A stretch of 40,000 bases of DNA from Paenibacillus sp. 1P03SA (GCF_047238265.1 NZ_JBDFMM010000001.1:4931245-4971244), one strand, 5' to 3'; positions 1 to 15,457 are shown, counted from the stretch's first letter. Made by a program: numbers and translations. Notes: generated by a model not told the origin, from the letters alone.

Positions 1-1028
1 CGAAGAGTTACCGATGAGAACATCTTAAGTTGTACCGGACTACCGAATAGAATTTGTAATGTTTCCAAACAATCTTCGGTCACAGTTGCAGAAAGTAGTA
101 ACGTACGGAATGGAGTAACTGAATGACGCAACATCATTTTACGCCATCCTGCAAGTTCTTGAAATGCAGGACGAAACCCCTCACCCCAGCCAGAAACAAT
201 ATGCGCTTCATCAATGACTAACATCTTGAAATAACCACGCTCAGCAGCAATCTGCAACGAATAATCTAAAGATTCAAGAACACTTTCTGGAGAGGCAAAT
301 ACGATACGCTGCGTTCCATTCATTATCGATTCTTGAATTTCTTTATTTTCTCTTTGACGTGAACTACTGGAAAAATATGCAGATGGCCGATTAATCAGTG
401 GCATTAATGCACGTTCCTGATCCAAAGCTAGTGCAACGGTTGGAACTACGACGACCGTAACGCCTTCTTGTCTTGAGAACAGGAGCGCTGGCAATTGTCC
501 ACACAAACTTTTTCCAGTTCCAGTAGGAAGGTTTAATAATATTGTTGCATCTTGAGGTGAAGTAAGCACAGTGCGCACTGCAGCACGCTGTGCATTACAT
601 CTGTAATTCAGTCTATTTACTTCCTTTAAAAATGGATCTCCTTCTACTTCCTTCATTTGATTACGTGGTTTCAATGCAAAAAGTGGTCTTTCAGGACCTT
701 CTTTATCGGCCTGTGGGAGCCAATTAGGCAACCAAGTCTCAGCACACAATAAATACGAATCCCGAACTTCATCCAATATAACTATTCCAACTAATTTATA
801 CATTAATTCATTTGGCCAATTGGCTCTGCGAGGGACACGCAGAAATATGCGCTCCCCTCCACTTCTTTCAGATTCATAACGTAAAACGCCCCGAATCAGT
901 GCTGCTAAATCCATCCCAATGGCACCACTCTGAATTGCTTCAACAAATCTACTAATAAAAGGATTGCTTGGTTTAAAGATTAAGTTTTCATTTAGAATCC
1001 ATTCCTGCAATTCATCAAATTCATTCAA
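1..1028 (-). CDS. RecQ-like DEAD/DEAH-box helicase, N-terminal ~342 aa only (continues beyond the window start); DpdF-like by position
   Basis: This ORF is not in the track, so I translated the minus strand by hand. A TTG start at 1028 overlaps the TGA of the upstream SNF2 gene (TTTTGA) and is preceded by GAGGAGGG. Motifs are NLPTGTGKS (Walker A), MLVIDEAHIVSGWGEGFRPAF (DEAH plus RecQ-type motif) and LLLSATV (motif III). Confidence 0.75.
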   Translation of the reverse strand, partial: MNEFDELQEWILNENLIFKPSNPFISRFVEAIQSGAIGMDLAALIRGVLRYESERSGGERIFLRVPRRANWPNELMYKLVGIVILDEVRDSYLLCAETWLPNWLPQADKEGPERPLFALKPRNQMKEVEGDPFLKEVNRLNYRCNAQRAAVRTVLTSPQDATILLNLPTGTGKSLCGQLPALLFSRQEGVTVVVVPTVALALDQERALMPLINRPSAYFSSSSRQRENKEIQESIMNGTQRIVFASPESVLESLDYSLQIAAERGYFKMLVIDEAHIVSGWGEGFRPAFQELAGWRKMMLRHSVTPFRTLLLSATVTEDCLETLQILFGSPVQLKMFSSVTL

Positions 1029-4000
1029 AATGTGGTCCCTCCTCTTCGCACTGACTTCAACAAGTCCCTTCCTGATAAAATTATAAATCCTGCCGAATCC
1101 AACTGAACTTTGGGTTGCTTTATACCCTGGACTATAGCCTCATACTGCTCCTCGTCAAATACATCATATGTTACCGAATCACCTTCGAAAAGTTTTCTCA
1201 TCTCCACTTGAACTTTTAAATAATTGAAATGGTTGATTGCAACTTCTGCTTTTGTTCTGCATTTTTCAATAAACTTAGGATCCTCATTTAAATATTGGCG
1301 TGACTGGGATGAAATCAAATCACATACTTTTTGCCATTGCTTTGTTGTAAAAATGTCACGTATTACTTTTAATCTATCTTTTATTATACTCGTATCCGTT
1401 CCACCGTCTTCCACATCACAATAGGGCCTAGCCAGCAAGTATTCAAGTTCGTCATCTACTCTATTGCCTTGATAATCAAGTATAACTTCGACATAAGTAG
1501 GCTCGAAGAACTTATCCAATAGTCGTTGATATACTTTTGAATCCACTTGGAGACCCCTTACCTCTAATAGATTTAATAACGGTTTAAGATCCCCCTCTAC
1601 AATGTAAAGGAGGCGAAATCCTAACCAATCTGTATCTTGTGTCCAAGACTTTACTTTTCTCCAAAATGCATAAGTTTGACCTCGATCATCCTTACGTAAA
1701 TATTCACTAAGAATATCAAAGAATGGATCACCAAGACGAAACAATTTGTAGTTGTTGTTTTTAATCACAATTTCGCGATCAAAGCAACCTGGTCTTTCCA
1801 TCTGCTCGTTAAGAGCAACCAAGTGTTGCGTAGGTAAAAGCGTGCCAAAAGCGGGCTTGTAAATAATTCGGCCTTCTTTTTCAATTTTTTTAAATCTCAT
1901 AGCTTCACATACCCAAGGCTCAAGTGATTGCTGTATTCTCTCTGGATTGCTTTCGTGAAGAACTAACTGATCAAAGAAACCATTTGCCTGTTGCTCATGA
2001 GCATCGATTTCATCAATAATCTGTTGTTCAGCAATCCGCACTTTCTCATCATGAATTTTAACCCTCATTCCCTCTATGCTTTTTTCTAACCCTGGTAACC
2101 CATCAATATAAAGATCGCGTAAAACGTCGGGTAGGATAGCATCAATGAAAAATTGCAAAGATGATATTGAATCGTTATAAATATTTAGGCCTTCTTTCAA
2201 AAATTGATGCCATCCCCACTGATAATTGACCTCTGCATCTGGGCCAGTTAGAACTGATATTCGAAATGGCTTATTACGACCTATACGATCAAGTCGTCCA
2301 ATTCGCTGTTCCAGTTGATTTGGAGCAAACGGCAGGTCATAATGAATCATTTCATCTGCAAACTGAAAATTACGACCTATTTCACCAGTTTTATCACATA
2401 CGAGTATCTGACACTCGCTATTATCACGAAAATTAGTTGTAACTAACTCAATTTGCTCTCTATTCAATCCCATATAATATCCGCCTACTGCCTCATCACC
2501 AAACGTTTCTTTCAGAAACTGAGTAACCTGCTTACAGACACGAGTATGTTGAGTGAATACTATAATTTTTTGAGGGGACTTTTTTTTGTGTTGTGCCCGT
2601 GTTTGAGTATGTTGAATCATTGTCGCTAGTAATTGATTTTTATCCCCCATTTCACTAGGGTAAGCAAATACTCTCAATAGGCGATCCAACATTTCTGATT
2701 CTCCCTCAAAATGCGGAGTCTCAACAATATACTGCAAATTAATTTTACTGAAGATTTCAGACATATCTTCTATCAGTTTTTGTTCTTTACGAATTTTAAC
2801 TAGATCACGAAGCAAATTTTCATCGGTGCATACTGCTTCAAGAAAAGACCTCCAAATACTAAGCCGAGGGGAAGTGACTGCACTTTCATCCTCCCATACC
2901 TCCCTCTCTGCTGCCCACGATTCTATACGATAATCATCCAAAATAAGATGAAGTTCTTCCGTTCTCTCATCCAGATCCCACTCTTCCATAACCGGTAGCT
3001 CTCCCCTGTGATGTTGAAACAAGGATGTAGCATTATCCCTTCGATTACGAAGCATCCGACGATGTAAGCGATAGGTTTCTGATATATGTATACGTATGCG
3101 GCGAATCAATTCCTTCCGTTTTTCTTCATACTTAGAATCTAAAGTCATTTCCAATTCGTCTAATAATGACATTAATAATTTATCTTCACTAAAGAGAATT
3201 CGGAAATTTCCAATTCGTCTCTGAATTAAGAACGGTTTCGTCTCCTCTCGAAATGACAATAGACCTTTACCTACTTCTTGTCTCTTATTTAACTTGTATC
3301 TAAAGGCATCAATGTCCTCTAAACGGTGTTGCTCAGGCGCTAAAATATGCAGCATAGACAAGAACTCCCATTCATTGTTTAACACTGGAGTAGCAGATAA
3401 CAAAAGCAATGTTTTAGCACTATGACACATATTTTTCAAAATGTCATAGTTTCTTTGTTCAACAGGATCCTTAGAGAAAGCCATTCTTGCTAATTCATGT
3501 GCCTCGTCTACAATAATGATGTCTGGTATGTTGTTGTAATTATTATCAATAGATTCTAACCCAGCAAAATGAATTCGCTCAGGAAATTGATCTATTAGAC
3601 AACGCTGTGTTAATTCGTCTTCCCACTGAGTTAACAAATAGTTAGGAGCCAAAATGATTGCCTGATGATTTGGATAATCCAATAGCTTCTGACGAAGGAT
3701 AACTCCTGCTTCGATAGTTTTCCCCATTCCGACCTCATCGGCAAGTAAGTATCGAGGTATAGGATCCTCTAAAACTCGGCGAATTACCTCAACTTGATGA
3801 GGCAGTATCTCAATGCCCGAAGAAATCAATCCCGTCATTCCGCTAGCAACTGCTCGCTGTTCTATTAACATCTGTAAAAATGAATTGCGCCTCTGATAAA
3901 AAAAAGACGTCTCCTGCCCTAGAATTGACAAAACTTCCATAGGATTAGTAGTAGAATCAGCACATCGGACAAATAGATCTTCTTGAGGAATATAACGAGA

Positions 4001-4285
4001 ATATGTATCAGGAAAATCGACTTCGTACTCATCATTAAGTTTGCGAAGAGCCCTCCCCATCTTCCACTCTTCTTTTTCCACATCATAGTAGTAACATCTC
4101 GTCTGGTGCTCCAATACTACCGATTGAATATCAAGCACAGAAAACCAGTCACTCGTTTGTTTATTAATTGAGTGAAAATAAGTTACCTCGGCTGTTTTCT
4201 TGTCTGCTGAAATGGCAGATAAACTTCCAATTCCCATTGAATTAGAAGTCACTTTAACAAATGAACCTACATAGATTCTAGACAT
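1025..4285 (-). CDS. SNF2-family helicase/translocase (1086 aa); DpdE-like by architecture and position
   Basis: Track ORF. Motifs are LLADEVGMGKTIEAG (motif I), IIIVDEAHE (DEAH) and LLLSATP (III). The C-terminal helicase lobe has KIIVFTQHT and LEQRIGRLDRIGR (VI). GGAGG lies 7 nt upstream of the ATG at 4285. Confidence 0.85.
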   Translation of the reverse strand: MSRIYVGSFVKVTSNSMGIGSLSAISADKKTAEVTYFHSINKQTSDWFSVLDIQSVVLEHQTRCYYYDVEKEEWKMGRALRKLNDEYEVDFPDTYSRYIPQEDLFVRCADSTTNPMEVLSILGQETSFFYQRRNSFLQMLIEQRAVASGMTGLISSGIEILPHQVEVIRRVLEDPIPRYLLADEVGMGKTIEAGVILRQKLLDYPNHQAIILAPNYLLTQWEDELTQRCLIDQFPERIHFAGLESIDNNYNNIPDIIIVDEAHELARMAFSKDPVEQRNYDILKNMCHSAKTLLLLSATPVLNNEWEFLSMLHILAPEQHRLEDIDAFRYKLNKRQEVGKGLLSFREETKPFLIQRRIGNFRILFSEDKLLMSLLDELEMTLDSKYEEKRKELIRRIRIHISETYRLHRRMLRNRRDNATSLFQHHRGELPVMEEWDLDERTEELHLILDDYRIESWAAEREVWEDESAVTSPRLSIWRSFLEAVCTDENLLRDLVKIRKEQKLIEDMSEIFSKINLQYIVETPHFEGESEMLDRLLRVFAYPSEMGDKNQLLATMIQHTQTRAQHKKKSPQKIIVFTQHTRVCKQVTQFLKETFGDEAVGGYYMGLNREQIELVTTNFRDNSECQILVCDKTGEIGRNFQFADEMIHYDLPFAPNQLEQRIGRLDRIGRNKPFRISVLTGPDAEVNYQWGWHQFLKEGLNIYNDSISSLQFFIDAILPDVLRDLYIDGLPGLEKSIEGMRVKIHDEKVRIAEQQIIDEIDAHEQQANGFFDQLVLHESNPERIQQSLEPWVCEAMRFKKIEKEGRIIYKPAFGTLLPTQHLVALNEQMERPGCFDREIVIKNNNYKLFRLGDPFFDILSEYLRKDDRGQTYAFWRKVKSWTQDTDWLGFRLLYIVEGDLKPLLNLLEVRGLQVDSKVYQRLLDKFFEPTYVEVILDYQGNRVDDELEYLLARPYCDVEDGGTDTSIIKDRLKVIRDIFTTKQWQKVCDLISSQSRQYLNEDPKFIEKCRTKAEVAINHFNYLKVQVEMRKLFEGDSVTYDVFDEEQYEAIVQGIKQPKVQLDSAGFIILSGRDLLKSVRRGGTTF

Positions 4286-4330: not shown

Positions 4331-4367
4331 CTGATTAAAAAAATAAGACCCTACAAAAGTAGGGTCT
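4331..4367 (-). terminator. Rho-independent terminator located between a promoter-like element and the SNF2 gene
   Basis: On the minus strand the sequence is AGACCCTAC-TTTT-GTAGGGTCT (9-bp stem, 4346-4354/4359-4367) followed by TATTTTTTTAAT. Confidence 0.6.
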
Positions 4368-4429
4368 CTCTAAGTCCAAATTATAGTTTAATATATTTCA
4401 AGTGCCACTACGCCCTTATTATTAGTATA

Positions 4430-4457
4430 ATCATACCAAATACCAGGTGATTGTCAA
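4430..4457 (-). promoter_or_regulatory. Sigma-A-type promoter (extended -10) upstream of the leader and SNF2 gene
   Basis: On the minus strand, TTGACA (4457-4452) is followed by a 16-nt spacer ending in TG, then TATGAT (4435-4430). Confidence 0.5.
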
Positions 4458-4537: not shown

Positions 4538-5284
4538 TCAAACCCCGCGTTTGTTACCCCACAACAAAGTGTGTAACTGCGGGAGAACTTTAACTTGTCT
4601 CAAATCCGAGGAAGCCATGACTTGATTAATCAACCATTCATACTTCTCTAATAAAGAAAGCACTAATCCTTCTCTATCTACTGTCGTTACATCGCTATTA
4701 CCCACCTGCAAAACTAGCCTCATGTGAGGATACCGTTTATGAACTTGTACAGCATACTGAAGATCATCTTCATCAAAAATGACTACTTTAATACATATTT
4801 CATTAGAACTATTGTTCAAGTTCTCGATAACCTCGTCTAATTTAACCCAATCGGTTATCATTCCTGAACTTGGTGCTTTCGGGGAAATCGTCAAATCATC
4901 AATATCTGCCATCCACTCTTGCCATCTGCTTCCTTGTGTCTCTAATCCAACTCGAATCCCTTGGTCATGAAGGAGATCCACTAAGTATCCAATATTCTTT
5001 AAAAGTGCTGGATTACCACCAGAGATTGTTACATGCTCAAAAGTGGTTCCACCAAGAGTCTTCAATTCATCCCAAACCATTTGGGCAGATAATTGTTTAA
5101 TTTCATTCTTTGCAGAACCATCCCATGTAAAGGAAGAATCACACCATGAACAGGAATAGTCACAGCCGGCTGTTCGAACAAACATTGTTTTTTGTCCAAT
5201 CACCAGACCTTCTCCCTGAACGGTTGGACCGAATATTTCCAGCACCGGGATGGGCTTTTCCTTATAAGTCAATCTGCCATCCAC
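4538..5284 (-). CDS. queE: 7-carboxy-7-deazaguanine synthase QueE (radical SAM)
   Basis: The CDYSCSWCD (CxxxCxxC) cluster motif sits after GPTVQGEGLVIGQKTMFVRTAG. Length of 248 aa is typical of Bacillus-type QueE. The GTG start overlaps the end of queD. Confidence 0.9.
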   Translation of the reverse strand: MDGRLTYKEKPIPVLEIFGPTVQGEGLVIGQKTMFVRTAGCDYSCSWCDSSFTWDGSAKNEIKQLSAQMVWDELKTLGGTTFEHVTISGGNPALLKNIGYLVDLLHDQGIRVGLETQGSRWQEWMADIDDLTISPKAPSSGMITDWVKLDEVIENLNNSSNEICIKVVIFDEDDLQYAVQVHKRYPHMRLVLQVGNSDVTTVDREGLVLSLLEKYEWLINQVMASSDLRQVKVLPQLHTLLWGNKRGV

Positions 5285-5760
5285 TCCCGTCTTGCTTCGG
5301 CACAGCTGGTTGGTGTTTCAAATAACCGAACAAATTCAGTTCTTGCATCCACGTCTTTTGATGAGTATTTATCAGTAGTTAGCGCTGCTTCCATCTGCTC
5401 ATAAAGCCAAACAACCAAGTTTTCAGCAGTCGTATTCATTAACGGCAACGTCTCATTTAAATATCTGTGGTCTAAGTATGGCTCTATTTGCTCACGCCAA
5501 ATTGTTTTTATCATTCCAAAATCTATCGTCATGCCAATTTCATTTGTATATCCACTTACTCCAAAAACAACTTTATAGGTGTGACCATGTAGATTTTTAC
5601 ATTTGCCCTCATATGCATGTAAGTGATGCGCCGCGTCAAAAGTAAATTCTTTACTGACTAATACTCTGCGCTGATGATATTTCAACTGTTCTTGAGTAAT
5701 ATCCTCTTTAAACTTTTGCAATGCATCTACAATAACGAATTGCCCTGGTATTTTGTTCAT
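5269..5760 (-). CDS. queD: 6-carboxy-5,6,7,8-tetrahydropterin synthase QueD
   Basis: Motifs FTFDAAHHL and CKNLHGHTYKV are the PTPS/QueD zinc-site histidines. I place the start at the internal ATG 5760 (MNKIPGQF), which has GGAG 9 nt upstream. The longer track ORF would overlap queC by 76 nt. Confidence 0.88.
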   Translation of the reverse strand: MNKIPGQFVIVDALQKFKEDITQEQLKYHQRRVLVSKEFTFDAAHHLHAYEGKCKNLHGHTYKVVFGVSGYTNEIGMTIDFGMIKTIWREQIEPYLDHRYLNETLPLMNTTAENLVVWLYEQMEAALTTDKYSSKDVDARTEFVRLFETPTSCAEARREWMAD

Positions 5761-5765
5761 AACAA

Positions 5766-6428
5766 CTACTCCGAATTTTTTCCCTGTAAAAATTTTTCCA
5801 AACCAGCTTTTCTCAACTGGCAAGCAGGACAAGTGCCACATCCATCACCGATAATACCGTTGTAGCAAGTCAAAGTCTTTTGGCGTACAAATTCAAACGC
5901 TCCTAATTGATCTGCCATTTCCCACGTCTCTGCTTTATTAATCCACATCAACGGAGTATGAATTATAAAATTATGATCCATCGCTAAATTTAACGTCACA
6001 TTTAGGGATTTGATGAAATCATCCCGGCAGTCAGGGTATCCACTAAAATCTGTCTCGCAGACGCCCGTTACAATATGTCTAGCATCTACTCCTTTAGCAA
6101 ATACCGCGGCGAAACTTAAAAACAAATGATTACGTCCTTCCACAAATGTGCTCGGAAGTTCACCATCATTATGAACAATTTCGAGGTCATTACGTGTCAG
6201 AGAATTCTGAGTTAGTTGACCGAGCAAGCTCATATCAAGTAACGTCCACTTTACTCCAAGTTCATCAGCGATTTGTTTAGCACATTCAATTTCTAAAGCA
6301 TGCCTTTGTCCATAATTAAAGGTGATTGCTTCAACTTCGTCAAAGTGCTTCATTGCCCAAAACAAAGAAGTTGTACTATCTTGACCGCCACTAAAAACTA
6401 CAACGGCTTTTCTGTTTTTTTGTTCCAT
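5766..6428 (-). CDS. queC: 7-cyano-7-deazaguanine (preQ0) synthase QueC
   Basis: [14 protein letters not shown] is the PP-loop ATP pyrophosphatase motif, and the C-terminal [10 protein letters not shown] is the zinc motif. I prefer the ATG at 6428 (MEQKNRK) by analogy with Bacillus QueC. The GTG at 6440 is the alternative. Confidence 0.9.
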
Positions 6429-6494
6429 AATCTTACCCACTTTCTCACCATTCTCCCTTAATGATAACAGATGTACTATTTTATCGAAAGTTGC

Positions 6495-9400
6495 CTATTT
6501 ATCGTTGCTCACAACTAATCTTATCTCTACAACTTCAAACAGATTAGGAAACTTCTCTTTAATCTCTTCTAACAGACGCTTACCTTGAACTGGTGGAAGG
6601 GTACTATAACCATTCTCAATGAGTAATCTAATATGTCTTTTTATAGAAGGCCTGATTTGAGAATTGTGATTTATTCTTTCGAGCAGGTGATAGATATTAC
6701 CAACGTCTTCATATTCAAGATCATTCCGAATGACTTCAAGAAGGTTTATCTGGATTTGCTCATGTTGAAGTTTTCTTTCGACCAGTTCTTTTAATTCATA
6801 AAAGTCCATCGACTGCCACTCATCAATTACGGAATTGAGTTCAGATTCAATCTGTGAACCCTCCATTAAGAGTTCAACACATGCAATCATTTTTAATCGA
6901 AGTTCCTTAATTGGCTTTAGAATTTTTAATTGGACTTGAAGATTTAACAAATACTTAACTATAGTGCGCGGAGTTAAAGCAAGACAGTTTTTTAGATTTG
7001 ATACCTTTTGCATATTAGCTAGAATTATCCTTTTTTTCTTCTCTAATTCAGACAAAGAGAACTTACCATCATCAACGATTTCTACTCCGACTTCTTCATA
7101 ATTCGCATGCATACCACACTCAATAAGGAAGTCAACTACTTCCATTAAATCCTGGTCAAATTGCTTTAATAACTGATCAACTTCATTGTTTAAAGCAAAG
7201 AACCTATTAAATTGGATGACTAGCTCTGGTTGTTCTAATTGTTGTTCAAGCAGCGTATAGTTCACAAGGTCTTGTTGTCGAAGAAATTTCTTTTCGTTAA
7301 AAGTACAGATTTGGTCTGCAAGTTTAATCCATTCTGCTCTACTAGAACCCATTAGAAATGGTATCATCATTAGTCTTTTTTCAATTGATTGCCTAAAGCT
7401 TTGATGAAGCAGTTCAAGATAACCACTATAGCTTTCTTTTAAATTTGATAGGAATTCCTTCAAGGTTAGATTGCCTATTATATAGCTTTCTAACGTTTTA
7501 GAAGGTACAAGATTTAATAACCATAGATCAAATTCTTCATTCGCTAATACATCATCATCTGGTGTCTCATAAAAATTTTCACGTAACAAATACCAATCTG
7601 AATAACATTCATCAAGCAACGACATTAAGTCTTTGTTGAAGGGAGATTTTCCTTTCGCATCGTAAGTCCATGAAGATTCACTATATATTCTGGCTTGTTG
7701 CGCCCAATTCCTCATTCCATACACAAATACAGGTAACTTCAACCCAAGAGCCTGCTCGAGAGATTCAAACCATAATTTATGAATATTTTCTGCCTGATAT
7801 ATCCACTTTGAAGTTTCATATTCATTTGAGATTTTTTGAAATATATTTAATTTTTCTGAATACTTCATCGTTTGAAAGTTGGATATTTGAATACCAATGT
7901 AATCACGATTTACATTTATAGAGAACTCATCATTTTTGTCTAGTTTAATAGGATATCGCGTTCGATGTACAACTTCATTCCATTGAATAACTGAGGAGGT
8001 TCGAGATGTGAATGCGCGGTTCATATGTACCCCCTTTATAACATCATGTACCAGAGCAGCCACCCCAGATCTAACAGGTAATAATAGTTCATCGTTTACT
8101 TCTTTTCCTTCTATCCAATCTCTGACTACCTCTTTTTCATTGAAGACAGTATTATCATTTTTATACTCTATATGAAGCGGTTGTTCTTCCCTTGTATTAC
8201 CTGCTGCTATCTTGTTTAACTTAATAGATATTTGAGTTTCGCTATAACCAAAGTGCTTTAACAAAGGTTCAGAAATTATCATTTGACTTGCATCTTCAGA
8301 CGCATACCATTCAGATAGTGTTTTAATAAACATATCTTCATGCTCCGCAAACATTTCCCTGCGTATAAGTGGAAGGACTCTACTAACATGCTTTTTACCT
8401 TTTAGAAAGAAGCGTAAGATTTCCTTGCTATTCAGTATCATGTAACGTAATTTACCTTTTCCTATAGGGATAGCATCGTATGTGCGTCTTAGCATATGAC
8501 TATTAAATGGGAGCACCTGAACTCCAAGATAATTAAAATTAGAATCTTTATTGCTTTCCTCTGGCAGAATACCAGAACATTGTTTGAAGTGCGGACATTT
8601 GAGAGAGCAGTTAAATCCCTGTGTCGCTTTCAGTTGGGTAAGATAATTTGCTATATAGGGTACTACTTGCTTACGATCAAGATTGAAAAAGTCTTTCCCC
8701 GACTCATCCGATAGCCATAGCTTTTTTACACGATCATTAATAGTATCAAGATTCTGTATTCTTTGTGTGAGACTAAACCCCTTCTCTGTATCCTGAACTG
8801 CACCAGGTGTCAAACCAATGACCACATCCCAGTTTCCTTCTTCTAATGTGATAAGTTGATCAAGGATACTGGTTGCGTAAATATTTACTGATTGAACTAG
8901 ATCATCAATCAACAACAAAGGACGGATTCCTCTGCTTTTTATCTGCAAAGACATTTGTTTAAAAAGGGTTCCGATATCTTGTCCCTCAAAAAGAAAATGG
9001 TCCAACTGCCGCGAGAGATTTTGTCGAAATGCTGCGTATTCTAATGGAATATGAAGGGTTGTATTGGCGAGCAAAGTTTCAAACTGTTCCCGATGCAGCA
9101 CCTCTAATGGATTTTTAATTTTTCCTCGTTTAACTTGTGATGTAAAATCAATAATATTTTGCTCAATCACCGGCCTTAACAATAGTGCTGTTGGAACGAT
9201 CTCCTCATCGGACTCCATAGCTTCCGCTAATGTTGTCCAAACCATTTGGTTAACAAGCGTTATAGGCTTTTTAAGCAAAATCCCCCACCTGTCTTCATCA
9301 ATACAAACATCTAGGGATAAATTCAGTGTGTCTAAACATTTTTTGATTAGGGTCTGAGGATTTAGTTCTGTTCGTGAGATTCGTATCACGGGTCTATCTG

Positions 9401-9692
9401 ATACCTCCACTAGCCACTTATCTTTTAACCAACGAAGCAATTCGGATTTACCCGATCCTGTCGAACCGAATACTAAATAAACTCTGTTGCCGCTAGCATC
9501 AGTTTCTTGAAGTTCTTCCAACAGTTCATCTTCCGTAACCTCAGCGACTAACTGACTACCATTATACCTATGCATTACTTGCGGAAAATGTGTTTTTCTG
9601 AAGTATTCAGGTGATAGATCATATCGCTCATCTGCAGTACCAGCTAAAAGTTTAAGCGAATTTTTGTTGAGACAAGGAAGCATTAGTATCAC
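6495..9692 (-). CDS. Large P-loop NTPase of unknown family (1065 aa)
   Basis: Track ORF. Walker A is LVFGSTGSGKSE (aa 73-84) and the Walker-B-like motif is RPLLLIDDLVQ (~aa 257-267). The remaining ~750 aa look helical with no motif I recognise. The start is uncertain (GTG 9692 or ATG 9683), and either choice overlaps the upstream 258-aa ORF. Confidence 0.7.
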   Translation of the reverse strand: MILMLPCLNKNSLKLLAGTADERYDLSPEYFRKTHFPQVMHRYNGSQLVAEVTEDELLEELQETDASGNRVYLVFGSTGSGKSELLRWLKDKWLVEVSDRPVIRISRTELNPQTLIKKCLDTLNLSLDVCIDEDRWGILLKKPITLVNQMVWTTLAEAMESDEEIVPTALLLRPVIEQNIIDFTSQVKRGKIKNPLEVLHREQFETLLANTTLHIPLEYAAFRQNLSRQLDHFLFEGQDIGTLFKQMSLQIKSRGIRPLLLIDDLVQSVNIYATSILDQLITLEEGNWDVVIGLTPGAVQDTEKGFSLTQRIQNLDTINDRVKKLWLSDESGKDFFNLDRKQVVPYIANYLTQLKATQGFNCSLKCPHFKQCSGILPEESNKDSNFNYLGVQVLPFNSHMLRRTYDAIPIGKGKLRYMILNSKEILRFFLKGKKHVSRVLPLIRREMFAEHEDMFIKTLSEWYASEDASQMIISEPLLKHFGYSETQISIKLNKIAAGNTREEQPLHIEYKNDNTVFNEKEVVRDWIEGKEVNDELLLPVRSGVAALVHDVIKGVHMNRAFTSRTSSVIQWNEVVHRTRYPIKLDKNDEFSINVNRDYIGIQISNFQTMKYSEKLNIFQKISNEYETSKWIYQAENIHKLWFESLEQALGLKLPVFVYGMRNWAQQARIYSESSWTYDAKGKSPFNKDLMSLLDECYSDWYLLRENFYETPDDDVLANEEFDLWLLNLVPSKTLESYIIGNLTLKEFLSNLKESYSGYLELLHQSFRQSIEKRLMMIPFLMGSSRAEWIKLADQICTFNEKKFLRQQDLVNYTLLEQQLEQPELVIQFNRFFALNNEVDQLLKQFDQDLMEVVDFLIECGMHANYEEVGVEIVDDGKFSLSELEKKKRIILANMQKVSNLKNCLALTPRTIVKYLLNLQVQLKILKPIKELRLKMIACVELLMEGSQIESELNSVIDEWQSMDFYELKELVERKLQHEQIQINLLEVIRNDLEYEDVGNIYHLLERINHNSQIRPSIKRHIRLLIENGYSTLPPVQGKRLLEEIKEKFPNLFEVVEIRLVVSNDK

Positions 9693-10428
9693 ATCTCCCC
9701 TCTACTTTAATCCAGTTCAACGTATTTTTTGGCCCATAGGATTTATATGGAAGGTCTTGCACATAACTCAATTCTATTTCCCCTGCCTCAGCTAATCCCA
9801 TCAATGAAAAAATAATCGCCTTGTATATTTTCCCTTCTGATGTCAAGCACGGAATAACTGGATGAATAAATTTTTCACAGAATAGATGTAACCCACCCTC
9901 CCATGTCTCACTTCTTTCAATGATACTTTTTATTAATGAAAGTTGTGGAAGGGCGTAAAAACCGGAGTAGACACGTCTTCCCAATCCCCAACATTCCATC
10001 ATTCGCTTCCATGCATTTATTTTTTCATGACCAACTACTGTCTTAATTAACTGACTATTAACTTGGTAATGAATATTGCTCAAAAATAGTCTATCTGGCT
10101 TTACAAATAACTGTTCAAAAATAGTCGCAAATATATGATCAAGAGAATCGCTAGGTATAGTATCAGAATTCGAGATTTTCCTTAACCTTAGAAAAATTTC
10201 TTTGTTAGTCCAAGCTTTATTTTGTGACACATAAAATTGTGCTTTGTCTTTATATATGAATTGCAAATCTTCTAATACCGTCAAGGCACATTCGATTAAA
10301 GAGGTAATGTCACCCTCTTCCCTATACTGGAATTTTGTTTTCAACCCATTTGTATCCAATCCAGGCTTAGTTCTTAGTTCCTCATAAATTACTTCAATTT
10401 CTGGCCCGTAACACATCTGGAACAACAT
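9652..10428 (-). CDS. Hypothetical protein (258 aa), island-specific
   Basis: Track ORF. There is a strong RBS, GGAGGG, 6 nt before the ATG at 10428. It overlaps the 3' end of dpdA by 35 nt and the NTPase start by ~40 nt, suggesting operonic coupling. No motif recognised. Confidence 0.6.
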   Translation of the reverse strand: MLFQMCYGPEIEVIYEELRTKPGLDTNGLKTKFQYREEGDITSLIECALTVLEDLQFIYKDKAQFYVSQNKAWTNKEIFLRLRKISNSDTIPSDSLDHIFATIFEQLFVKPDRLFLSNIHYQVNSQLIKTVVGHEKINAWKRMMECWGLGRRVYSGFYALPQLSLIKSIIERSETWEGGLHLFCEKFIHPVIPCLTSEGKIYKAIIFSLMGLAEAGEIELSYVQDLPYKSYGPKNTLNWIKVEGRCDTNASLSQQKFA

Positions 10429-11326
10429 GTTCGTCCCTCCTCTGCTTATTTTCTAAAATATCTTTAAATGTTCTTGATAAGTGATAATAATTGTGGACTG
10501 ATCTTAACTTCATATATTCTCTTGGTGAAGGAATAAAAATCTGTTTTGCATTAATTTTACACACAGGGCATTCACAATGAAGTGGGTTTTCCAATCGAGG
10601 GCTTGTGGGTTTTGCTCTGGATTCTGATAGAAAAAAAGTTCTAAATGGTCTACTGTAAAATACCTGAAAGAATGCAGCGGCCATTGTTGGTCGAGTTGAA
10701 TCAAATGACTTTACTCCAATATCAACCATCGCATTAAGTTGAGGAATCCCTGTTACTCCAAAGACATGAAGGTTTGCAGATCCAACAACATCTGAAGCCC
10801 TCCTAATCATTTCAATTTGTTCAGTCTGATGTTTAAATAACAAGGACCCAATCCCAAAATTTTTATATCCCATCTTAATTAACTCATAGGCTGAAAACTC
10901 TATACTAAATTGGTCATAACCTTGTATCACTCCCATTGGTTCAACAAATTTAGGAAGCTTATACCTATTAAAGAGATTTAAATATTCGTAGGCATTAAAT
11001 AGTGTTCTTTCAATGGCCATGTAACGTTCAGATAAAGAATTCTTATTCAGCAGAGGTTCATCAAAATGAACCATTTGAATTTTGGCCGTTGAATCACAAT
11101 CTTCCAAGATTGATTGTTGAATATCAAAAACATCTTTTAGCGGGGGCCTACTCTTTTGTTTAACATAAAAAACTGATCCACAATCTAGTATTAACTTTTT
11201 GGGTTTGTTTCTATACTTCTTTACTCCTCCTCTATTGTCTGGAATTGCACTTATTAACACCGAACACGTAGGAAAGTAATCACAAAAAATTGCATCACTA
11301 TGTGACCAACCAATATAAAAATCCAC
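10394..11326 (-). CDS. dpdA: DpdA-type (TGT-fold) 7-deazaguanine DNA transglycosylase, 310 aa
   Basis: TGT hallmarks, in order, are LILDCGS (Asp region), GVIQGYD, LHVFGV and SFDSTRP. The zinc site is HCECPVC...VHNYYH (CxCxxC...H). It lacks a PUA or tRNA-binding extension and sits next to queCDE. The GTG start has AAGGAGGG upstream. Confidence 0.78.
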   Translation of the reverse strand: MDFYIGWSHSDAIFCDYFPTCSVLISAIPDNRGGVKKYRNKPKKLILDCGSVFYVKQKSRPPLKDVFDIQQSILEDCDSTAKIQMVHFDEPLLNKNSLSERYMAIERTLFNAYEYLNLFNRYKLPKFVEPMGVIQGYDQFSIEFSAYELIKMGYKNFGIGSLLFKHQTEQIEMIRRASDVVGSANLHVFGVTGIPQLNAMVDIGVKSFDSTRPTMAAAFFQVFYSRPFRTFFLSESRAKPTSPRLENPLHCECPVCKINAKQIFIPSPREYMKLRSVHNYYHLSRTFKDILENKQRRDEHVVPDVLRARN

Positions 11327-11400: not shown

Positions 11401-11436
11401 TAAAAATATAAAAAAAGAAGCCCTCAGGCTTCTTTT
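11401..11436 (-). terminator. Rho-independent terminator ending the transporter-distal transcription unit (after the 264-aa gene)
   Basis: On the minus strand the sequence is AAAAGAAGCC-TGAG-GGCTTCTTTT followed by TTTATATTTTT. The stop codon TGA of the 264-aa ORF lies in the loop. Confidence 0.7.
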
Positions 11437-12218
11437 ATCCATTGTCTCCATATTTCATATATTAATCCGCGTTGTTCATCATTAAATTTAAATCGGCCAT
11501 TATTTACATGTAAAACAGGGTTATCTCTATCAAAAAACTTGCCACTCCATTTTTCAAAATGAAATTTCTTTAATAGCAATGGCCGCGGCAAATTCGTCAT
11601 TTGAGAACCAGCAATCCATTGTTCGATGAAATATCTAATATAGCAGTACCACGCTATAGAGGAGTCAGCAATAGATTTTTTTCGGAACTGTTTTCTTTCT
11701 ATTACAGAAAGGTATCCTAATTCAGGGTAATCATTCATTAAAGAGTCAACGTATTTAATTAAATCTTTGGCTAATTGAGGGTATAAACTACGCTCAATTC
11801 GATAGTTTAGAAAATCTTCAAAAATATCATGTAGCGATCTAATGGTCATTAGCTTAGTGGAGTTGCTACTTATTTTTTCTCCCATCTCAATTAACCGTTC
11901 AAAACGCTGATAGGACATTAATTGATGTACGCAGTAACTAGGGAATTGTTGGACTTCAGATACAATTAGAACAACATATTCATCACCTTTACTACCGTTG
12001 GGCAATTTGTATGTAAACTGTGGGTTTGTCACTTGTAATTTATTGTTCATTAAATTTACAACAGTATCATAATTGATTAAAATGACGTCTTCGCCAATTA
12101 CATCAGACTGAATTACAGGAAAACCCCAGTCTTTAATAGCACCTAATGGCAGTACTGTAAAATAAACATCATCATTCTTTCTGGTTAAATTGCTTACGTT
12201 TTCAAAAGTAAAAACCAT
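11424..12218 (-). CDS. Hypothetical protein (264 aa), island-specific
   Basis: Track ORF. The RBS GGGGGA lies 6 nt before the ATG at 12218. No motif recognised. Confidence 0.6.
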   Translation of the reverse strand: MVFTFENVSNLTRKNDDVYFTVLPLGAIKDWGFPVIQSDVIGEDVILINYDTVVNLMNNKLQVTNPQFTYKLPNGSKGDEYVVLIVSEVQQFPSYCVHQLMSYQRFERLIEMGEKISSNSTKLMTIRSLHDIFEDFLNYRIERSLYPQLAKDLIKYVDSLMNDYPELGYLSVIERKQFRKKSIADSSIAWYCYIRYFIEQWIAGSQMTNLPRPLLLKKFHFEKWSGKFFDRDNPVLHVNNGRFKFNDEQRGLIYEIWRQWIKEA

Positions 12219-12233
12219 GGAATTTCCCCCAAC

Positions 12234-12272
12234 GCAAATATGCCTTAGTGTACCACACTAAGGCATATTTGC
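12234..12272 (-). repeat. Perfect 18-bp inverted repeat (3-nt loop) between the 684-aa and 264-aa genes
   Basis: The arms are gcaaatatgccttagtgt / acactaaggcatatttgc. The repeat starts 3 nt after the TAG of the 684-aa ORF and ends just before the RBS of the next gene. No U-tract follows on the minus strand. Confidence 0.8.
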
Positions 12273-12275
12273 GCA

Positions 12276-14312
12276 CTATTTATTCCACCGTTTCTTCAAT
12301 TCCTGAATCTGACTGTAGTATACATGAGTATTATGAAAGCCTCTTCGTCTGTTCCTATTGTTACCTCTGAATACTATCACATCAATTCCAATTTCCCTAC
12401 ATATATTACAACTGCATTGTTCCCATGGTCGTTCAGATAAAACCTCTCTATACAAATCCTCATGAACATCGCGCTTTTCGCCAAGTATTTTGTCATATTC
12501 CAGTATAGCTTCAAGTGTAGAATCTAACTCCCTTGTCCCCGTGCTGAATTCCCTAAGAGCACCTAATGCCTCTTGTTCAAGCCTTCTATATTCCACAAAC
12601 TCTATTTCATCACTATTTTGCAACATTTTTTTCACTCTTCCAGATGTTTCTTTCGCTTCTGGAATTCTAATTGCTGTATAGTGTTTACCACTCAAAGAGT
12701 GGTAATTATGTCCTGTTCCTAACCATGCCCTTCTCAACGGTGAAGAAGAGTCAAATGATGTTACACCCAATTTATGAAAAGACTCCATTGTTCTCACATC
12801 TCGCGCAACCCCGAACAAGTGCATTCGAAACGTAGGACTTGGAATAATAGGAGCTATCTCTTTTAGAATTTCATATATTTTTTCAGACTGTTCTCTGGCT
12901 AAACCTCCTAAGGCAATATAGTCATAACCTAATCCAATAAGATACTCGACCGCTCTTCGGAAAGAGGGTGGGTCCCAGCCTTGGACTATTCCTATCGGAT
13001 GGAACTGATAGTTCTTTGTTTCTCTATTTTCCCTATACATACGTAAAAATTCTTCCGCCATCGTAAGGGTTAGTTCATAGCGCTGATTTCGAGTATTTTC
13101 ATCTTTCTGGAAGGGTCCCACTATTAGATGGTCAATAGATACACCATAATCAAAACCTAAAGTATGATAGTAATCCATAATTTCTTCGGTCGTATAAGGT
13201 GGTACATCTTTATCAATATAACTAAAAGCGCCACAATCACCCATAATAGGATACTCTCTAGGTAGTTTATAAAAATCGTGCAAGCCCATATCTTTAATCA
13301 TCTGATTTTTTTGTTTGGTGGCACTATCAATATTCACTTTAGAAACGAGCAACCCATCAAACTGAGGTCTATCAAAAATCTGATGAGCATACACATCATT
13401 TTCTAATGGATTTCTATTTTTTTCTGAGAAATCAGCCATAAAATCATAATTAGGATCTACCCTATCATCATTTTCTGGAAGATAGAACCTTGGTTCCTCG
13501 ATGCAATTTATAGCAACCAACTCATCTGGTACAGGGAACATTTCATTGTAAAACTTTAATAGATCTTCTTTATCCGATGAGTCACTAAATAGCTCAGGTT
13601 GTTTAATTGAAGCAATTGAATCTAAAATAAACGATCTAATTTGATCAGGATGATGGGCTATTGTATCCCATTTCTGATCAATATTAGCTGTAATAGTACT
13701 CCTCAATAAATGTGCGAAAAGATACCCTTTAATACCTATCAATCCATATTTAAATGTTTTAGCTTCTTTTTCTCCAATAGTTAATACATGATAATCGTCC
13801 CAATTTAGAATTCTAGAACGACTGGATGCTCCAGCAAAAAAGATAGCTTTTTGATTTTTTTTAAGCTTTAGTGGCCACTCTACAGCTTGTAGATACTTAT
13901 CTCCGAGCAAGAAAAAAATAATATCGTATTCAGCAACCTTTTTTTGTAGTGCCTGTGTGATTTTGAGTTCACGCGCCCATTTTTTTATAGTCTGCGAATC
14001 CATTGTATTAAAAGTCACTTCATAGGGAACAATTTGCGCATCTTCATTCAGAAGGCCATAACCCGCTGAAATTATGCAAAGGTCAATATTTCCACCCTTT
14101 TGCCTATATTCTTTAATACCAGTCATTAGCGCAAGATGCTGACTACCTGTGTACATTTCATCAGCACGTTCTTTGAATTCCAATAATTCTTCTTCTCTTT
14201 GTTTTAATACATCTTTATTCTTGAAATCATCAAATACAAGCTGATTTATCGGTTTATGCAACTTCTCTCCAGTACAAGAAGTGACAACAAGAATACGTTT
14301 CGACAAAAACAT
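12276..14312 (-). CDS. Fusion protein with an unknown ~340-aa N-terminal domain plus a C-terminal TGT/DpdA-type transglycosylase domain
   Basis: The C-terminal half has IMGDCGAFSY, GIVQGWD, MHLFGVARD, SFDSSSP and the zinc site CSCNIC...FHNTH, in the same motif order as the 310-aa DpdA. The N-terminal half has VVTSCTGEK ... IISAGYGLL ... VPYEVTF. I prefer the ATG at 14312 as start. The GTG at 14330 directly abuts the upstream terminator and has no RBS. Confidence 0.8.
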   Translation of the reverse strand: MFLSKRILVVTSCTGEKLHKPINQLVFDDFKNKDVLKQREEELLEFKERADEMYTGSQHLALMTGIKEYRQKGGNIDLCIISAGYGLLNEDAQIVPYEVTFNTMDSQTIKKWARELKITQALQKKVAEYDIIFFLLGDKYLQAVEWPLKLKKNQKAIFFAGASSRSRILNWDDYHVLTIGEKEAKTFKYGLIGIKGYLFAHLLRSTITANIDQKWDTIAHHPDQIRSFILDSIASIKQPELFSDSSDKEDLLKFYNEMFPVPDELVAINCIEEPRFYLPENDDRVDPNYDFMADFSEKNRNPLENDVYAHQIFDRPQFDGLLVSKVNIDSATKQKNQMIKDMGLHDFYKLPREYPIMGDCGAFSYIDKDVPPYTTEEIMDYYHTLGFDYGVSIDHLIVGPFQKDENTRNQRYELTLTMAEEFLRMYRENRETKNYQFHPIGIVQGWDPPSFRRAVEYLIGLGYDYIALGGLAREQSEKIYEILKEIAPIIPSPTFRMHLFGVARDVRTMESFHKLGVTSFDSSSPLRRAWLGTGHNYHSLSGKHYTAIRIPEAKETSGRVKKMLQNSDEIEFVEYRRLEQEALGALREFSTGTRELDSTLEAILEYDKILGEKRDVHEDLYREVLSERPWEQCSCNICREIGIDVIVFRGNNRNRRRGFHNTHVYYSQIQELKKRWNK

Positions 14313-14330
14313 CCCATCCTTTATTAACAC

Positions 14331-14360
14331 AATATAAAATAGGGCGAGAGCGCCCTATTT
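14331..14360 (-). terminator. Rho-independent terminator after the transporter gene
   Basis: On the minus strand the sequence is AAATAGGGCG-CTCT-CGCCCTATTT followed by TATATT. Confidence 0.6.
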
Positions 14361-14381: not shown

Positions 14382-14900
14382 TTAAAAAAATTTTTTTACA
14401 ATCATTGCAGCGAATAATTGAACCAATGTTTTAACAATGATTTGACCGACAATAGCCAAAAACACAGCATTCCATGCAAGAATATTGGCTCCCAATGGGG
14501 ATAGACCAACAACAACAAAAATAATACTATCTAATATTCCTCCAACAATCCCGCTGTATGCTACCCTCATATGAAAAGGTAGTTTAAGACGTGAATAGAT
14601 TTCGGTATCTGTGGTCTCAGATACTGCGAATGTAATAATTGAAGCAAACACAATCCAAAGTGTGTCACCAAGTAAATATGATGTTAATGCTGATAAAACC
14701 ATTGCTATTAAAATAAATAAATAAGTCTTCTGCCGACCAACATAATTTTGTACAAAATCGCGGAATATAAATGTTGCCCCTATTATAAAAGTCCCTGCCG
14801 GAATAATGAAAGGACCGATAAAAAACGGGGGTACTCCTGCTGTCACGACATTTGATGAAATAATAGCTATTAAATAAGCTATAATTGTTAAGTATTTAAT
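14382..14900 (-). CDS. yhhQ: YhhQ/VUT-family queuosine-precursor (preQ0/preQ1) transporter
   Basis: Polytopic membrane protein with GTFIIGATFIFRDFVQNYVG and ETTDTEIY-type motifs recalled from YhhQ. The track ORF starts at GTG 14846. However, the in-frame upstream codons encode a first TM segment (KYLTIIAYLIAIISSNVV), and AGAGGTGA lies 7 nt before an ATT at 14900, so the 5' end is uncertain. Confidence 0.72.
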   Translation of the reverse strand: MKYLTIIAYLIAIISSNVVTAGVPPFFIGPFIIPAGTFIIGATFIFRDFVQNYVGRQKTYLFILIAMVLSALTSYLLGDTLWIVFASIITFAVSETTDTEIYSRLKLPFHMRVAYSGIVGGILDSIIFVVVGLSPLGANILAWNAVFLAIVGQIIVKTLVQLFAAMIVKKFF

Positions 14901-14933
14901 TTTACATCACCTCTTCATTTCTATCCATCACTA

Positions 14934-14942
14934 ATTATAACA
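14934..14942 (-). promoter_or_regulatory. Extended -10 promoter element (TGTTATAAT) for the transporter gene
   Basis: TGTTATAAT is read on the minus strand, ~30 nt upstream of the RBS. There is no good -35. Confidence 0.45.
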
Positions 14943-15289
14943 TCACTTTTTGTTCCGAGCTACCCTCGCCAGACTAATTAATTTATCCAATCGTTGGCTA
15001 GTTTGGGGTACAAAAACATCTCGTTCTTCTTGATAACCTATCAAATCGAGTTAATTTAATTGCTATATTAACCTTCCATACATTACCCTACTCATCCCCA
15101 TCAAACAATTCCGATAAACCACCTGTCCACGGATGAAGGATACATCGGCCACCTTGCCATTCCCATTTCCGGAACAACCTTGACACAGAAGCATTACTAC
15201 AACAATGAACATTTATGGCCACGCTCATGGGACTGTCGATCAAGCTGCTGCTGCTGATAAATTCGAATTATTCTTTACATCTAAACCTC

Positions 15290-15332
15290 CACAAAGACAA
15301 TAAGAAGACGCCTAGGTTCCCCTGGCGTCTTC
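15290..15332 (-). terminator. Rho-independent terminator of rlmCD; last core-genome element before the island
   Basis: On the minus strand GAAGACGCC...GGCGTCTTC forms a 9-bp stem (15304-15312/15324-15332) followed by TTATTGTCTTTG. Confidence 0.6.
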
Positions 15333-15457
15333 GGTTCATTTAGGCTGATTTCTAATCGATTTTCACATTGATTTTACATCAAACCTATATTTCGCCCCAT
15401 GTACTACTGATATTTTTTATCTCTACCATATCGAATAACCCAGTAAATATACGGTTT

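Follow-up and report, generated by a model that had tools for sequence, protein, structure and literature searches.

Exchange of guanine for preQ0 by the Salmonella transglycosylase DpdA needs a second protein, the ParB-like ATPase DpdB (Gedara et al. 2023, PMC10164549), and for the TGT-containing BRC system it has been proposed that the place of the absent DpdB is taken by a different NTPase (PMC12839542). Here, a stretch of 40,000 nucleotides from Paenibacillus sp. 1P03SA (GCF_047238265.1, NZ_JBDFMM010000001.1:4931245-4971244), which is called the window throughout, was analysed with respect to a Dpd island in which no DpdB is recognisable. Within this island, three overlapping genes encode a small second member of the TGT family (mini-TGT, also mini-DpdA or "TGT310"), a 258-aa protein (p258, "DpdG2"), and a 1065-aa P-loop ATPase (p1065, "DpdH2"); the three are referred to as the trio, and p258 with p1065 as the pair. 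Mini-TGT, the DpdG-like protein, and the DpdH-like protein constitute a conserved three-gene module. By analogy with DpdA and DpdB, this may be a writer module in which a winged-helix protein and an AAA+/STAND-like ATPase do the job of DpdB for the mini-TGT, a reading to which we assign a probability of roughly 50%. Coordinates are window positions, and all genes of the Dpd array lie on the minus strand:

10394..11326, minus strand: 310-aa mini-DpdA (TGT310), second TGT-family transglycosylase (Pfam TGT E 2.9e-14; NCBIfam DpdA 77.6 bits)
9652..10428, minus strand: 258-aa DpdG2, divergent DpdG paralog (hhalign vs. DpdG 96.8%, E 2.4e-10)
6495..9692, minus strand: 1065-aa P-loop ATPase DpdH2, divergent DpdH paralog (NCBIfam DpdH E 7.9e-9; hhalign 99.5%)

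Relationship of the pair to DpdG and DpdH

The genes for mini-TGT and p258 overlap by 35 nt, and the ATG of p258 at 10428 is preceded, 6 nt upstream, by a GGAGGG ribosome-binding site. Translation of p1065 may start at GTG 9692 or at ATG 9683, the latter being the start taken for the NCBI protein (1062 aa), so that its gene overlaps that of p258 by 41 or 32 nt, respectively. A preliminary description of this locus had reported the open reading frames of 258 and 1065 aa, their overlaps (35 nt and ~40 nt), the Walker A motif GSTGSGKS, and a Walker B motif, all of which are confirmed in the sequence. Three conserved motifs were placed in p1065:

9444..9467, minus strand: Walker A GSTGSGKS, aa 76-83 of p1065 (G76, G79, G81, K82, and S83 invariant in 64 homologues)
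8901..8918, minus strand: Walker B LLLIDD, aa 259-264 of p1065 (D263 and D264 invariant in 64 homologues; an invariant LVQS follows)
8577..8609, minus strand: C362-x3-C366-x-H368-x3-C372 of p1065, possible zinc knuckle (C362, C366, and C372 at least 90% conserved)

Both proteins of the pair have conserved families (204 and 79 matches). Apart from the Walker motifs, the preliminary description had found nothing recognisable in the large protein; the motifs stand, but its N-terminus also matches DpdH, which is the sole significant NCBIfam/PADLOC family for p1065 (E 7.9e-9 and 4e-8). In the NCBIfam match, aa 26-122 align to model positions 20-120. The score against the DpdH equivalog NF041065 is 34.5 bits, below the 450-bit cut-off, compared with 782-800 bits for the canonical DpdH proteins of related loci. 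Profile comparison (hhalign) extends the similarity considerably, as p1065 aligns to the canonical DpdH of related islands at 99.5% (E 2.2e-22), the alignment spanning 508 columns (725 under greedy settings), and to a single Enterobacter DpdH at 88% (E 2.9e-6), in the N-terminus only. An exhaustive profile search of 1.84 billion representatives returned no more than 449 relatives, and in the next tier 29 of 32 match DpdH alone. The two proteins also share the context of their motifs (GSGKSEL..WL at Walker A and IIED/LIDD at Walker B), and the zinc-knuckle-like region aligns to canonical DpdH residues ~403-445, whereas the C-terminal ~400 aa of p1065 are divergent. Thus, the ATPase is not unrelated to known Dpd proteins, as had been supposed, but is a divergent paralog of DpdH.

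A comparable picture emerges for p258, in which the preliminary description had seen no motif. Direct scans indeed gave no match (Pfam, NCBIfam, and PADLOC), the DpdG model NF041064 (cut-off 80 bits) included at E<0.1; the hhalign comparison with DpdG, however, reaches 96.8% (E 2.4e-10) over 221 columns, against less than 1% for unrelated control alignments. A narrower alignment of the family (A2) gave no signal with a single Enterobacter DpdG. In the AlphaFold2 (AF2) model (pLDDT 90.1), three consecutive helix-helix-helix-strand-strand units resemble winged helices, and the best Foldseek matches in the PDB are the tandem winged-helix proteins RPC62, SspB, and SelB, all with E>1e-3. By its profile, p258 is a divergent paralog of DpdG, and tandem winged-helix units are predicted to make up its fold. 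The pair agrees with DpdG and DpdH of the S. Montevideo type in gene order, the small winged-helix protein preceding a P-loop ATPase of ~1000 aa, as well as in protein lengths and in its location within a Dpd island. In contrast to DpdG and DpdH, they are extra copies, coupled to a TGT instead of to DpdF and DpdI, and no DpdI-like partner accompanies them. Fusion of DpdI to the C-terminus of p1065 was considered and rejected, as no DpdI-like region was found there.

The AF2 model of p1065 (pLDDT 84.6) shows a P-loop ATPase in the N-terminal ~450 aa and, C-terminal to it, a long helical region. For the N-terminal part, the nearest structures found by Foldseek are RdrA (8e-5), TrwB, Cdc6/ORC (4e-3), and NOD2, with RdrA and TrwB outscoring Cdc6/ORC; all TM-scores are low. 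Scores for STAND and KAP families fall below the cut-offs (NACHT 13.5 bits, nSTAND5 17 bits), and precomputed matches to PF07693 or PF01637 are present in some homologues. A profile search of the PDB with the p1065 family gave coiled-coil noise only, and neither p258 nor p1065 matches the DGQHR, DndB, or DpdB (NF041060) models. As an alternative, the preliminary description had proposed a BREX-type sensor ATPase. This comes nearer to the ancestry of p1065, given that DpdH/I have been equated with BrxC and DpdH has been called BrxC-like (10.1101/2025.09.15.676423), but a direct BrxC match for p1065 was not confirmed: there is no match to Pfam BrxC_BrxD (PF10923) at E<0.1 and none to the PADLOC BrxC models.

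Conservation and genomic context of the module

For comparison, 42 related loci (numbered with the prefix L) were collected and annotated with locally built hidden Markov models (HMMs). A p258 homologue lies immediately upstream of the p1065 homologue in 37 of the 38 loci with at least 800 bp of upstream sequence, in two phyla, and the gap between these two genes is typically -4 to -41 nt. The mini-TGT gene is adjacent in 30 of the 31 loci with at least 2.2 kb upstream. Across the module, gaps are mostly -41 to +9 nt. In other genomes, too, the pair is thus tied strictly to a transglycosylase of the TGT type, in support of the preliminary description. One locus, in a Gammaproteobacteria metagenome-assembled genome (L042), accounts for the exception in both counts; it holds pseudogene fragments of all three genes (8652-11036) and looks like a decayed copy of the trio outside its usual phyla. 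The trio is always situated inside a Dpd island, in Bacillota and Chloroflexota. It is co-directional in Bacillales, while in Clostridia and Chloroflexota the TGT gene is usually divergent from the pair. No published description of the trio was found in the literature.

The remaining genes of the island in the window are as follows:

14382..14846, minus strand: VUT/YhhQ-type queuosine-precursor (preQ0) transporter (Pfam Vut_1, TIGR00697)
12276..14330, minus strand: 684-aa fusion of a DpdC-like DUF6884 domain (N-terminal) with canonical DpdA (aa 281-680) (NCBIfam DpdA 448 bits; Pfam DUF6884; PADLOC DpdC 3e-11)
11424..12218, minus strand: 264-aa orphan protein p264, in the dpdB position, Bacillales only (no DGQHR motif; weak DGQHR/DndB matches)
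4538..6440, minus strand: queC, queD, and queE (preQ0 synthesis), immediately after the p1065 gene (Pfam QueC 277 bits, PTPS 119 bits, Radical_SAM)
1025..4285, minus strand: DpdE, SNF2 helicase, first gene of the canonical restriction operon (NCBIfam DpdE 929 bits)
1..1028, minus strand: N-terminal 342 aa of DpdF, starting at 1028 and leaving the window at its left end

The low-GC island extends from position 1 to ~15,000 (33-41% G+C in 1-kb windows, compared with mostly 51-63% across the remaining window), and its genes are arranged, in order of transcription, as YhhQ, DpdC-DpdA fusion, p264, mini-TGT, p258, p1065, queC, queD, queE, and DpdE. In a 93% identical locus (L002), the array goes on with canonical DpdF (809 bits), DpdG (141 bits), and DpdH, and, as in that locus, the canonical DpdG and DpdH genes are found immediately beyond the left end of the window. 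At the right border (~14,900-15,400), the G+C content jumps sharply from ~34% to over 51%, and genes of the host follow from ~15,400 (a rlmCD-like TRAM methyltransferase, dagK, cbiX, and the pur operon). Neither a tRNA nor an integrase was seen at this edge of the island, and Rfam and tRNA scans found no riboswitches or tRNAs in the island. Terminator-like hairpins lie 3' of the p264 gene, just before that of mini-TGT (11413-11436), and after yhhQ (14337-14360). The queE-dpdE gap (4345-4457) contains a strong promoter-like site (TTGACA-16-TATGAT with TG) and then a hairpin. These promoter-like and terminator-like sites suggest that the trio with queCDE and the restriction genes are separate transcription units. 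A 41-nt near-perfect palindrome (12233-12273; 19-bp stem, 3-nt loop) between the genes for the DpdC-DpdA fusion and p264 may act as an operator or form an RNA hairpin.

Genes of preQ0 supply are the usual surroundings of the module. In Bacillales generally, the trio stands between queCDE and the genes for YhhQ, DpdC-DpdA, and p264. In two Paenibacillaceae loci (L001 15320-20483 and L009 13367-18480), a pair of AddB-like and AddA-like (UvrD/RecB-type) genes follows the trio/queCDE block, in the place held elsewhere by DpdE. Outside Bacillales, canonical DpdD, DpdJ, DpdK, DpdH, and a DpdI-like gene adjoin the module. Links to preQ0 supply genes are seen in other arrangements as well; for example, the mini-TGT gene is on the same strand as queC and yhhQ in loci such as L028, L035, and L037. 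This context bears on whether the trio might be an effector, that is, whether an ATPase-loaded mini-TGT attacks phage DNA, be it 7-deazaguanine-modified or unmodified, and leaves covalent or abasic lesions. The TGT mechanism does include a covalent enzyme-DNA intermediate (PMC10164549), and DNA glycosylases serve in defence (10.1101/2025.10.29.685425). However, the tight linkage of the trio to queC and yhhQ implies that a base is inserted, and an effector role is therefore considered very improbable.

Two transglycosylases and a missing DpdB

The TGT gene overlapping that of p258 had been taken for dpdA itself. In fact, it encodes a second enzyme, which scores 77.6 bits against the NCBIfam DpdA model NF041059 (cut-off 200), compared with 448 bits for the canonical DpdA in the 684-aa fusion. 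Residues D48, D89, D209, C251, C253, C256, and H278 of mini-TGT show no variation in any of the 34 family members, and D48, D89, and D209 together with the Cys3His zinc site align to D95, D130, D256, and the zinc site of S. Montevideo DpdA (7UI4 alignment), in which Asp95 is the general acid/base and Asp256 the nucleophile (PMC10164549). Because the catalytic aspartates and zinc residues are invariant, mini-TGT looks catalytically competent. The position of DpdA His181 is occupied by Gln in the mini-TGT family and in the local canonical DpdA alike. Mini-TGT differs from Salmonella DpdA in its length of only 310 aa and in the lack of ~110 residues, that is, most, of the DpdA-specific insertion Ins8. 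No phage relatives of mini-TGT were found by tblastn.

The DpdC-DpdA fusion matches PDB 7UI4 with E 3e-91, and the same fusion of a DpdC-like DUF6884/YaaA-like N-terminal domain with DpdA occurs in most related loci. An annotated DpdA of 698 aa, encoded on a cyanobacterial plasmid (L048), may likewise be a fusion of this kind. Taken literally, the preliminary description has p1065, perhaps with p258, replace DpdB for the canonical DpdA; mini-TGT would then have another or a redundant role. DpdB is indeed absent, in 23 of the 26 fully flanked loci the fusion is no more than 10 kb away from the pair, and in four loci (L021, L033, L034, and L036) p258 and p1065 are encoded directly upstream of DpdC-DpdA, followed in L021 by YhhQ and QueC. 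Nonetheless, the constant neighbour of the pair is mini-TGT (30/31), which in several loci (L020, L024, L026, L035, and L039) has no other TGT within 10 kb, and in the window the terminator-like hairpin (11436-11413) parts the DpdC-DpdA/p264 unit from the trio. Assignment of the pair to the canonical DpdA is thus improbable, though less so than the effector role discussed above.

The observation that no DpdB is recognisable at this locus held when extended to related islands. Within 10 kb, only one of the 42 loci (L028) encodes a true DpdB-like protein of the DGQHR type (VVDGQHR motif, 115 bits), and jackhmmer started from this protein found no relative in any of the others. None is annotated in the complete island of Paenibacillus sp. 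37 plasmid pART37 (L043), whereas the canonical island of Enterobacter pPOL9A combines dpdA-dpdB with a single G and a single H and is devoid of the trio. In both L002 and pART37, the canonical DpdG/H/I hold their position in the restriction operon dpdE-F-G-H-I-J-K; in the window, p1065 lies between mini-TGT/p258 and queC. The island of pART37 (543 kb; L043 9281-12124 and 23595-43162) also has two dpdJ genes, and its queE end is flanked by nfi (endonuclease V), DNA polymerase IV, and yolD-like genes.

The product of the gene in the dpdB position, p264, has a conserved SxNSTK motif and lacks the DGQHR motif. Weak matches to DGQHR and DndB were obtained for 7 and 3 of its 11 family members, respectively, in the C-terminal part of the models (best 3.8e-5), and a database search returned 7 close relatives only, none with domains. 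Its identification as a degenerate DpdB gained no support, neither hhalign nor jackhmmer revealing similarity to the true DpdB-like protein of L028. It is unlikely that p264 is an ATPase.

Relation to restriction modules and to other defence systems

The islands with the trio are a variant of the Dpd system, not a new kind of system. They also carry canonical DpdD-K genes, and in many of them NCBIfam confirms a canonical DpdG/DpdH pair besides the p1065 homologue (141 and ~800 bits). Haloarchaeal loci of the BRIGADE type (10.1101/2025.09.15.676423) contain the closest outgroup relatives of the trio proteins. Against the family HMMs, those of the pair reach 50 and 125 bits and that of mini-TGT 66 bits, each higher than against the canonical DpdG, DpdH, or DpdA HMMs. 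Like the window, BRIGADE has two TGTs, a DUF6884 protein, and relatives of the trio proteins, but the distribution of these is different: the pair is found with YprA/PLD genes, and mini-TGT with another ~300-aa protein and a 383-aa BrxC_BrxD ATPase. In two such loci (L044 4772-10839 and L045 2314-5401), the order is TGT735, DUF6884 protein, mini-TGT, ~300-aa protein, and the 383-aa ATPase, which matches BrxC_BrxD at 65 bits; no DpdB is annotated in L044. The idea that the ~300-aa protein (h299) and this ATPase are homologues of p258 and p1065 was not supported. A mini-TGT of the same clade combined with a ~300-aa protein and a BrxC-type ATPase, in an order that parallels that of the window, is a recurrent theme, in which the haloarchaeal partners are unrelated to those of the window.

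The strongest alternative sees in the pair a second module for sensing or restriction. As a BrxC-like scanner it would read a modification, perhaps the mark made by mini-TGT, and license the DpdJ/DpdK/DpdE/F effectors, and the adjacency of the TGT would reflect co-regulation of writer and reader rather than a step of writing that needs ATP. Homology to DpdG and DpdH, members of the restriction gene set (PMC10164549), agrees with this, as do the position of the BRIGADE-type pair in a YprA/PLD operon with mini-TGT beside a different ATPase partner, the abutment of the pair on DpdD/K/J/I/H in non-Bacillales loci, and the predicted fold of p1065, which resembles RdrA and STAND sensors. However, the same islands already possess a canonical DpdG/DpdH(/I) set, the Bacillales trio is translationally coupled and surrounded by the transporter, DpdA, and queCDE genes, and a promoter-like and a terminator-like site separate it from the DpdE operon. 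In addition, a sensing role leaves the absence of DpdB unexplained. On balance it is judged unlikely, although distinctly less so than assignment of the pair to the canonical DpdA.

The trio resembles DpdA/DpdB in combining a TGT-family DNA transglycosylase with an ATPase, its proposed role being ATP-dependent insertion of preQ0 into double-stranded DNA; in place of a ParB-like DGQHR protein, however, it has a DpdH paralog of AAA+/STAND-like character, partnered by a winged-helix protein. With BrxC/PglY of BREX, the pair has in common a large P-loop ATPase and small DNA-binding partners in a modification-based defence. In contrast to BREX and BRC, no PglZ, HerA/FtsK, GNAT, or BrxB homologue was seen in the trio loci, and BRC is a system unrelated to the trio in which a similar substitution has been put forward.

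Proposed role of the trio

From gene context, we infer that the pair supplies the ATP-dependent step of modification. The DpdG-like p258 and the DpdH-like p1065 would form a complex, as is suggested by their translational coupling across phyla. This complex would engage DNA and spend ATP to open target guanines to mini-DpdA for exchange with preQ0. BrxC is required for BREX methylation; the role proposed here would parallel that requirement, as well as that of DpdB for Salmonella DpdA. The duplicated DpdG/DpdH pair would thus be devoted to writing, and the canonical DpdG/H/I would remain with the restriction genes. In favour of this reading are the homology to DpdG and DpdH, the constancy of the module, its place among writer-side genes, the invariant motifs by which both mini-TGT and p1065 look active, the lack of DpdB, and the recurrent haloarchaeal combination of a mini-TGT with a BrxC-type ATPase.

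Several points weigh against this assignment to the writer. The case for the function of the pair rests on gene context and analogy. Phage DpdAs of a size similar to that of mini-TGT are thought to act without an ATPase. Besides mini-TGT, the window also has an intact canonical DpdA domain, and the ATPase could serve either TGT; in some genomes a DpdB could be encoded more than 10 kb away. The dpdD-K genes, including those for canonical DpdG/H, are needed for restriction and not for modification (PMC10164549). Finally, the p258-like and p1065-like proteins of the haloarchaeal loci share their operon with YprA helicases and a PLD nuclease and so belong to the restriction side, where the p1065 lineage can therefore also sit.

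Implications

It is possible, though we hold this with less confidence than the role proposed for the trio itself, that an ATP-driven AAA+ loader of the BrxC/DpdH type, together with a tandem winged-helix adaptor, is dedicated to a DNA base-exchange enzyme and in this three-protein writer replaces DpdB across a whole class of Dpd/BRIGADE-type systems. If this is true, DpdG/H modules and, by extension, BrxA/BrxC-like ones couple directly to the modifying enzyme, and the sensor on the restriction side and the loader on the writer side would be duplicates of one machine.

Irrespective of the function of the pair, the composition of these islands affects how Dpd systems are counted. Because a DGQHR DpdB-like protein accompanies only one of the 42 loci, surveys that need both dpdA and dpdB (GATOR-GC, PMC12235509) likely overlook most such islands. 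Moreover, the PADLOC and NCBIfam models do not name p258 and p1065, and hence the Dpd systems of Bacillota and Chloroflexota are probably under-counted.

The proposed role of the trio bears on how a TGT-fold enzyme reaches a guanine in double-stranded DNA and on why ATP is needed for this, Salmonella DpdA/DpdB included. Islands without DpdB, in which a duplicated DpdG/DpdH is joined to a minimal DpdA, amount to a natural experiment and may offer a compact three-gene test of BrxC-like ATPases in DNA modification.

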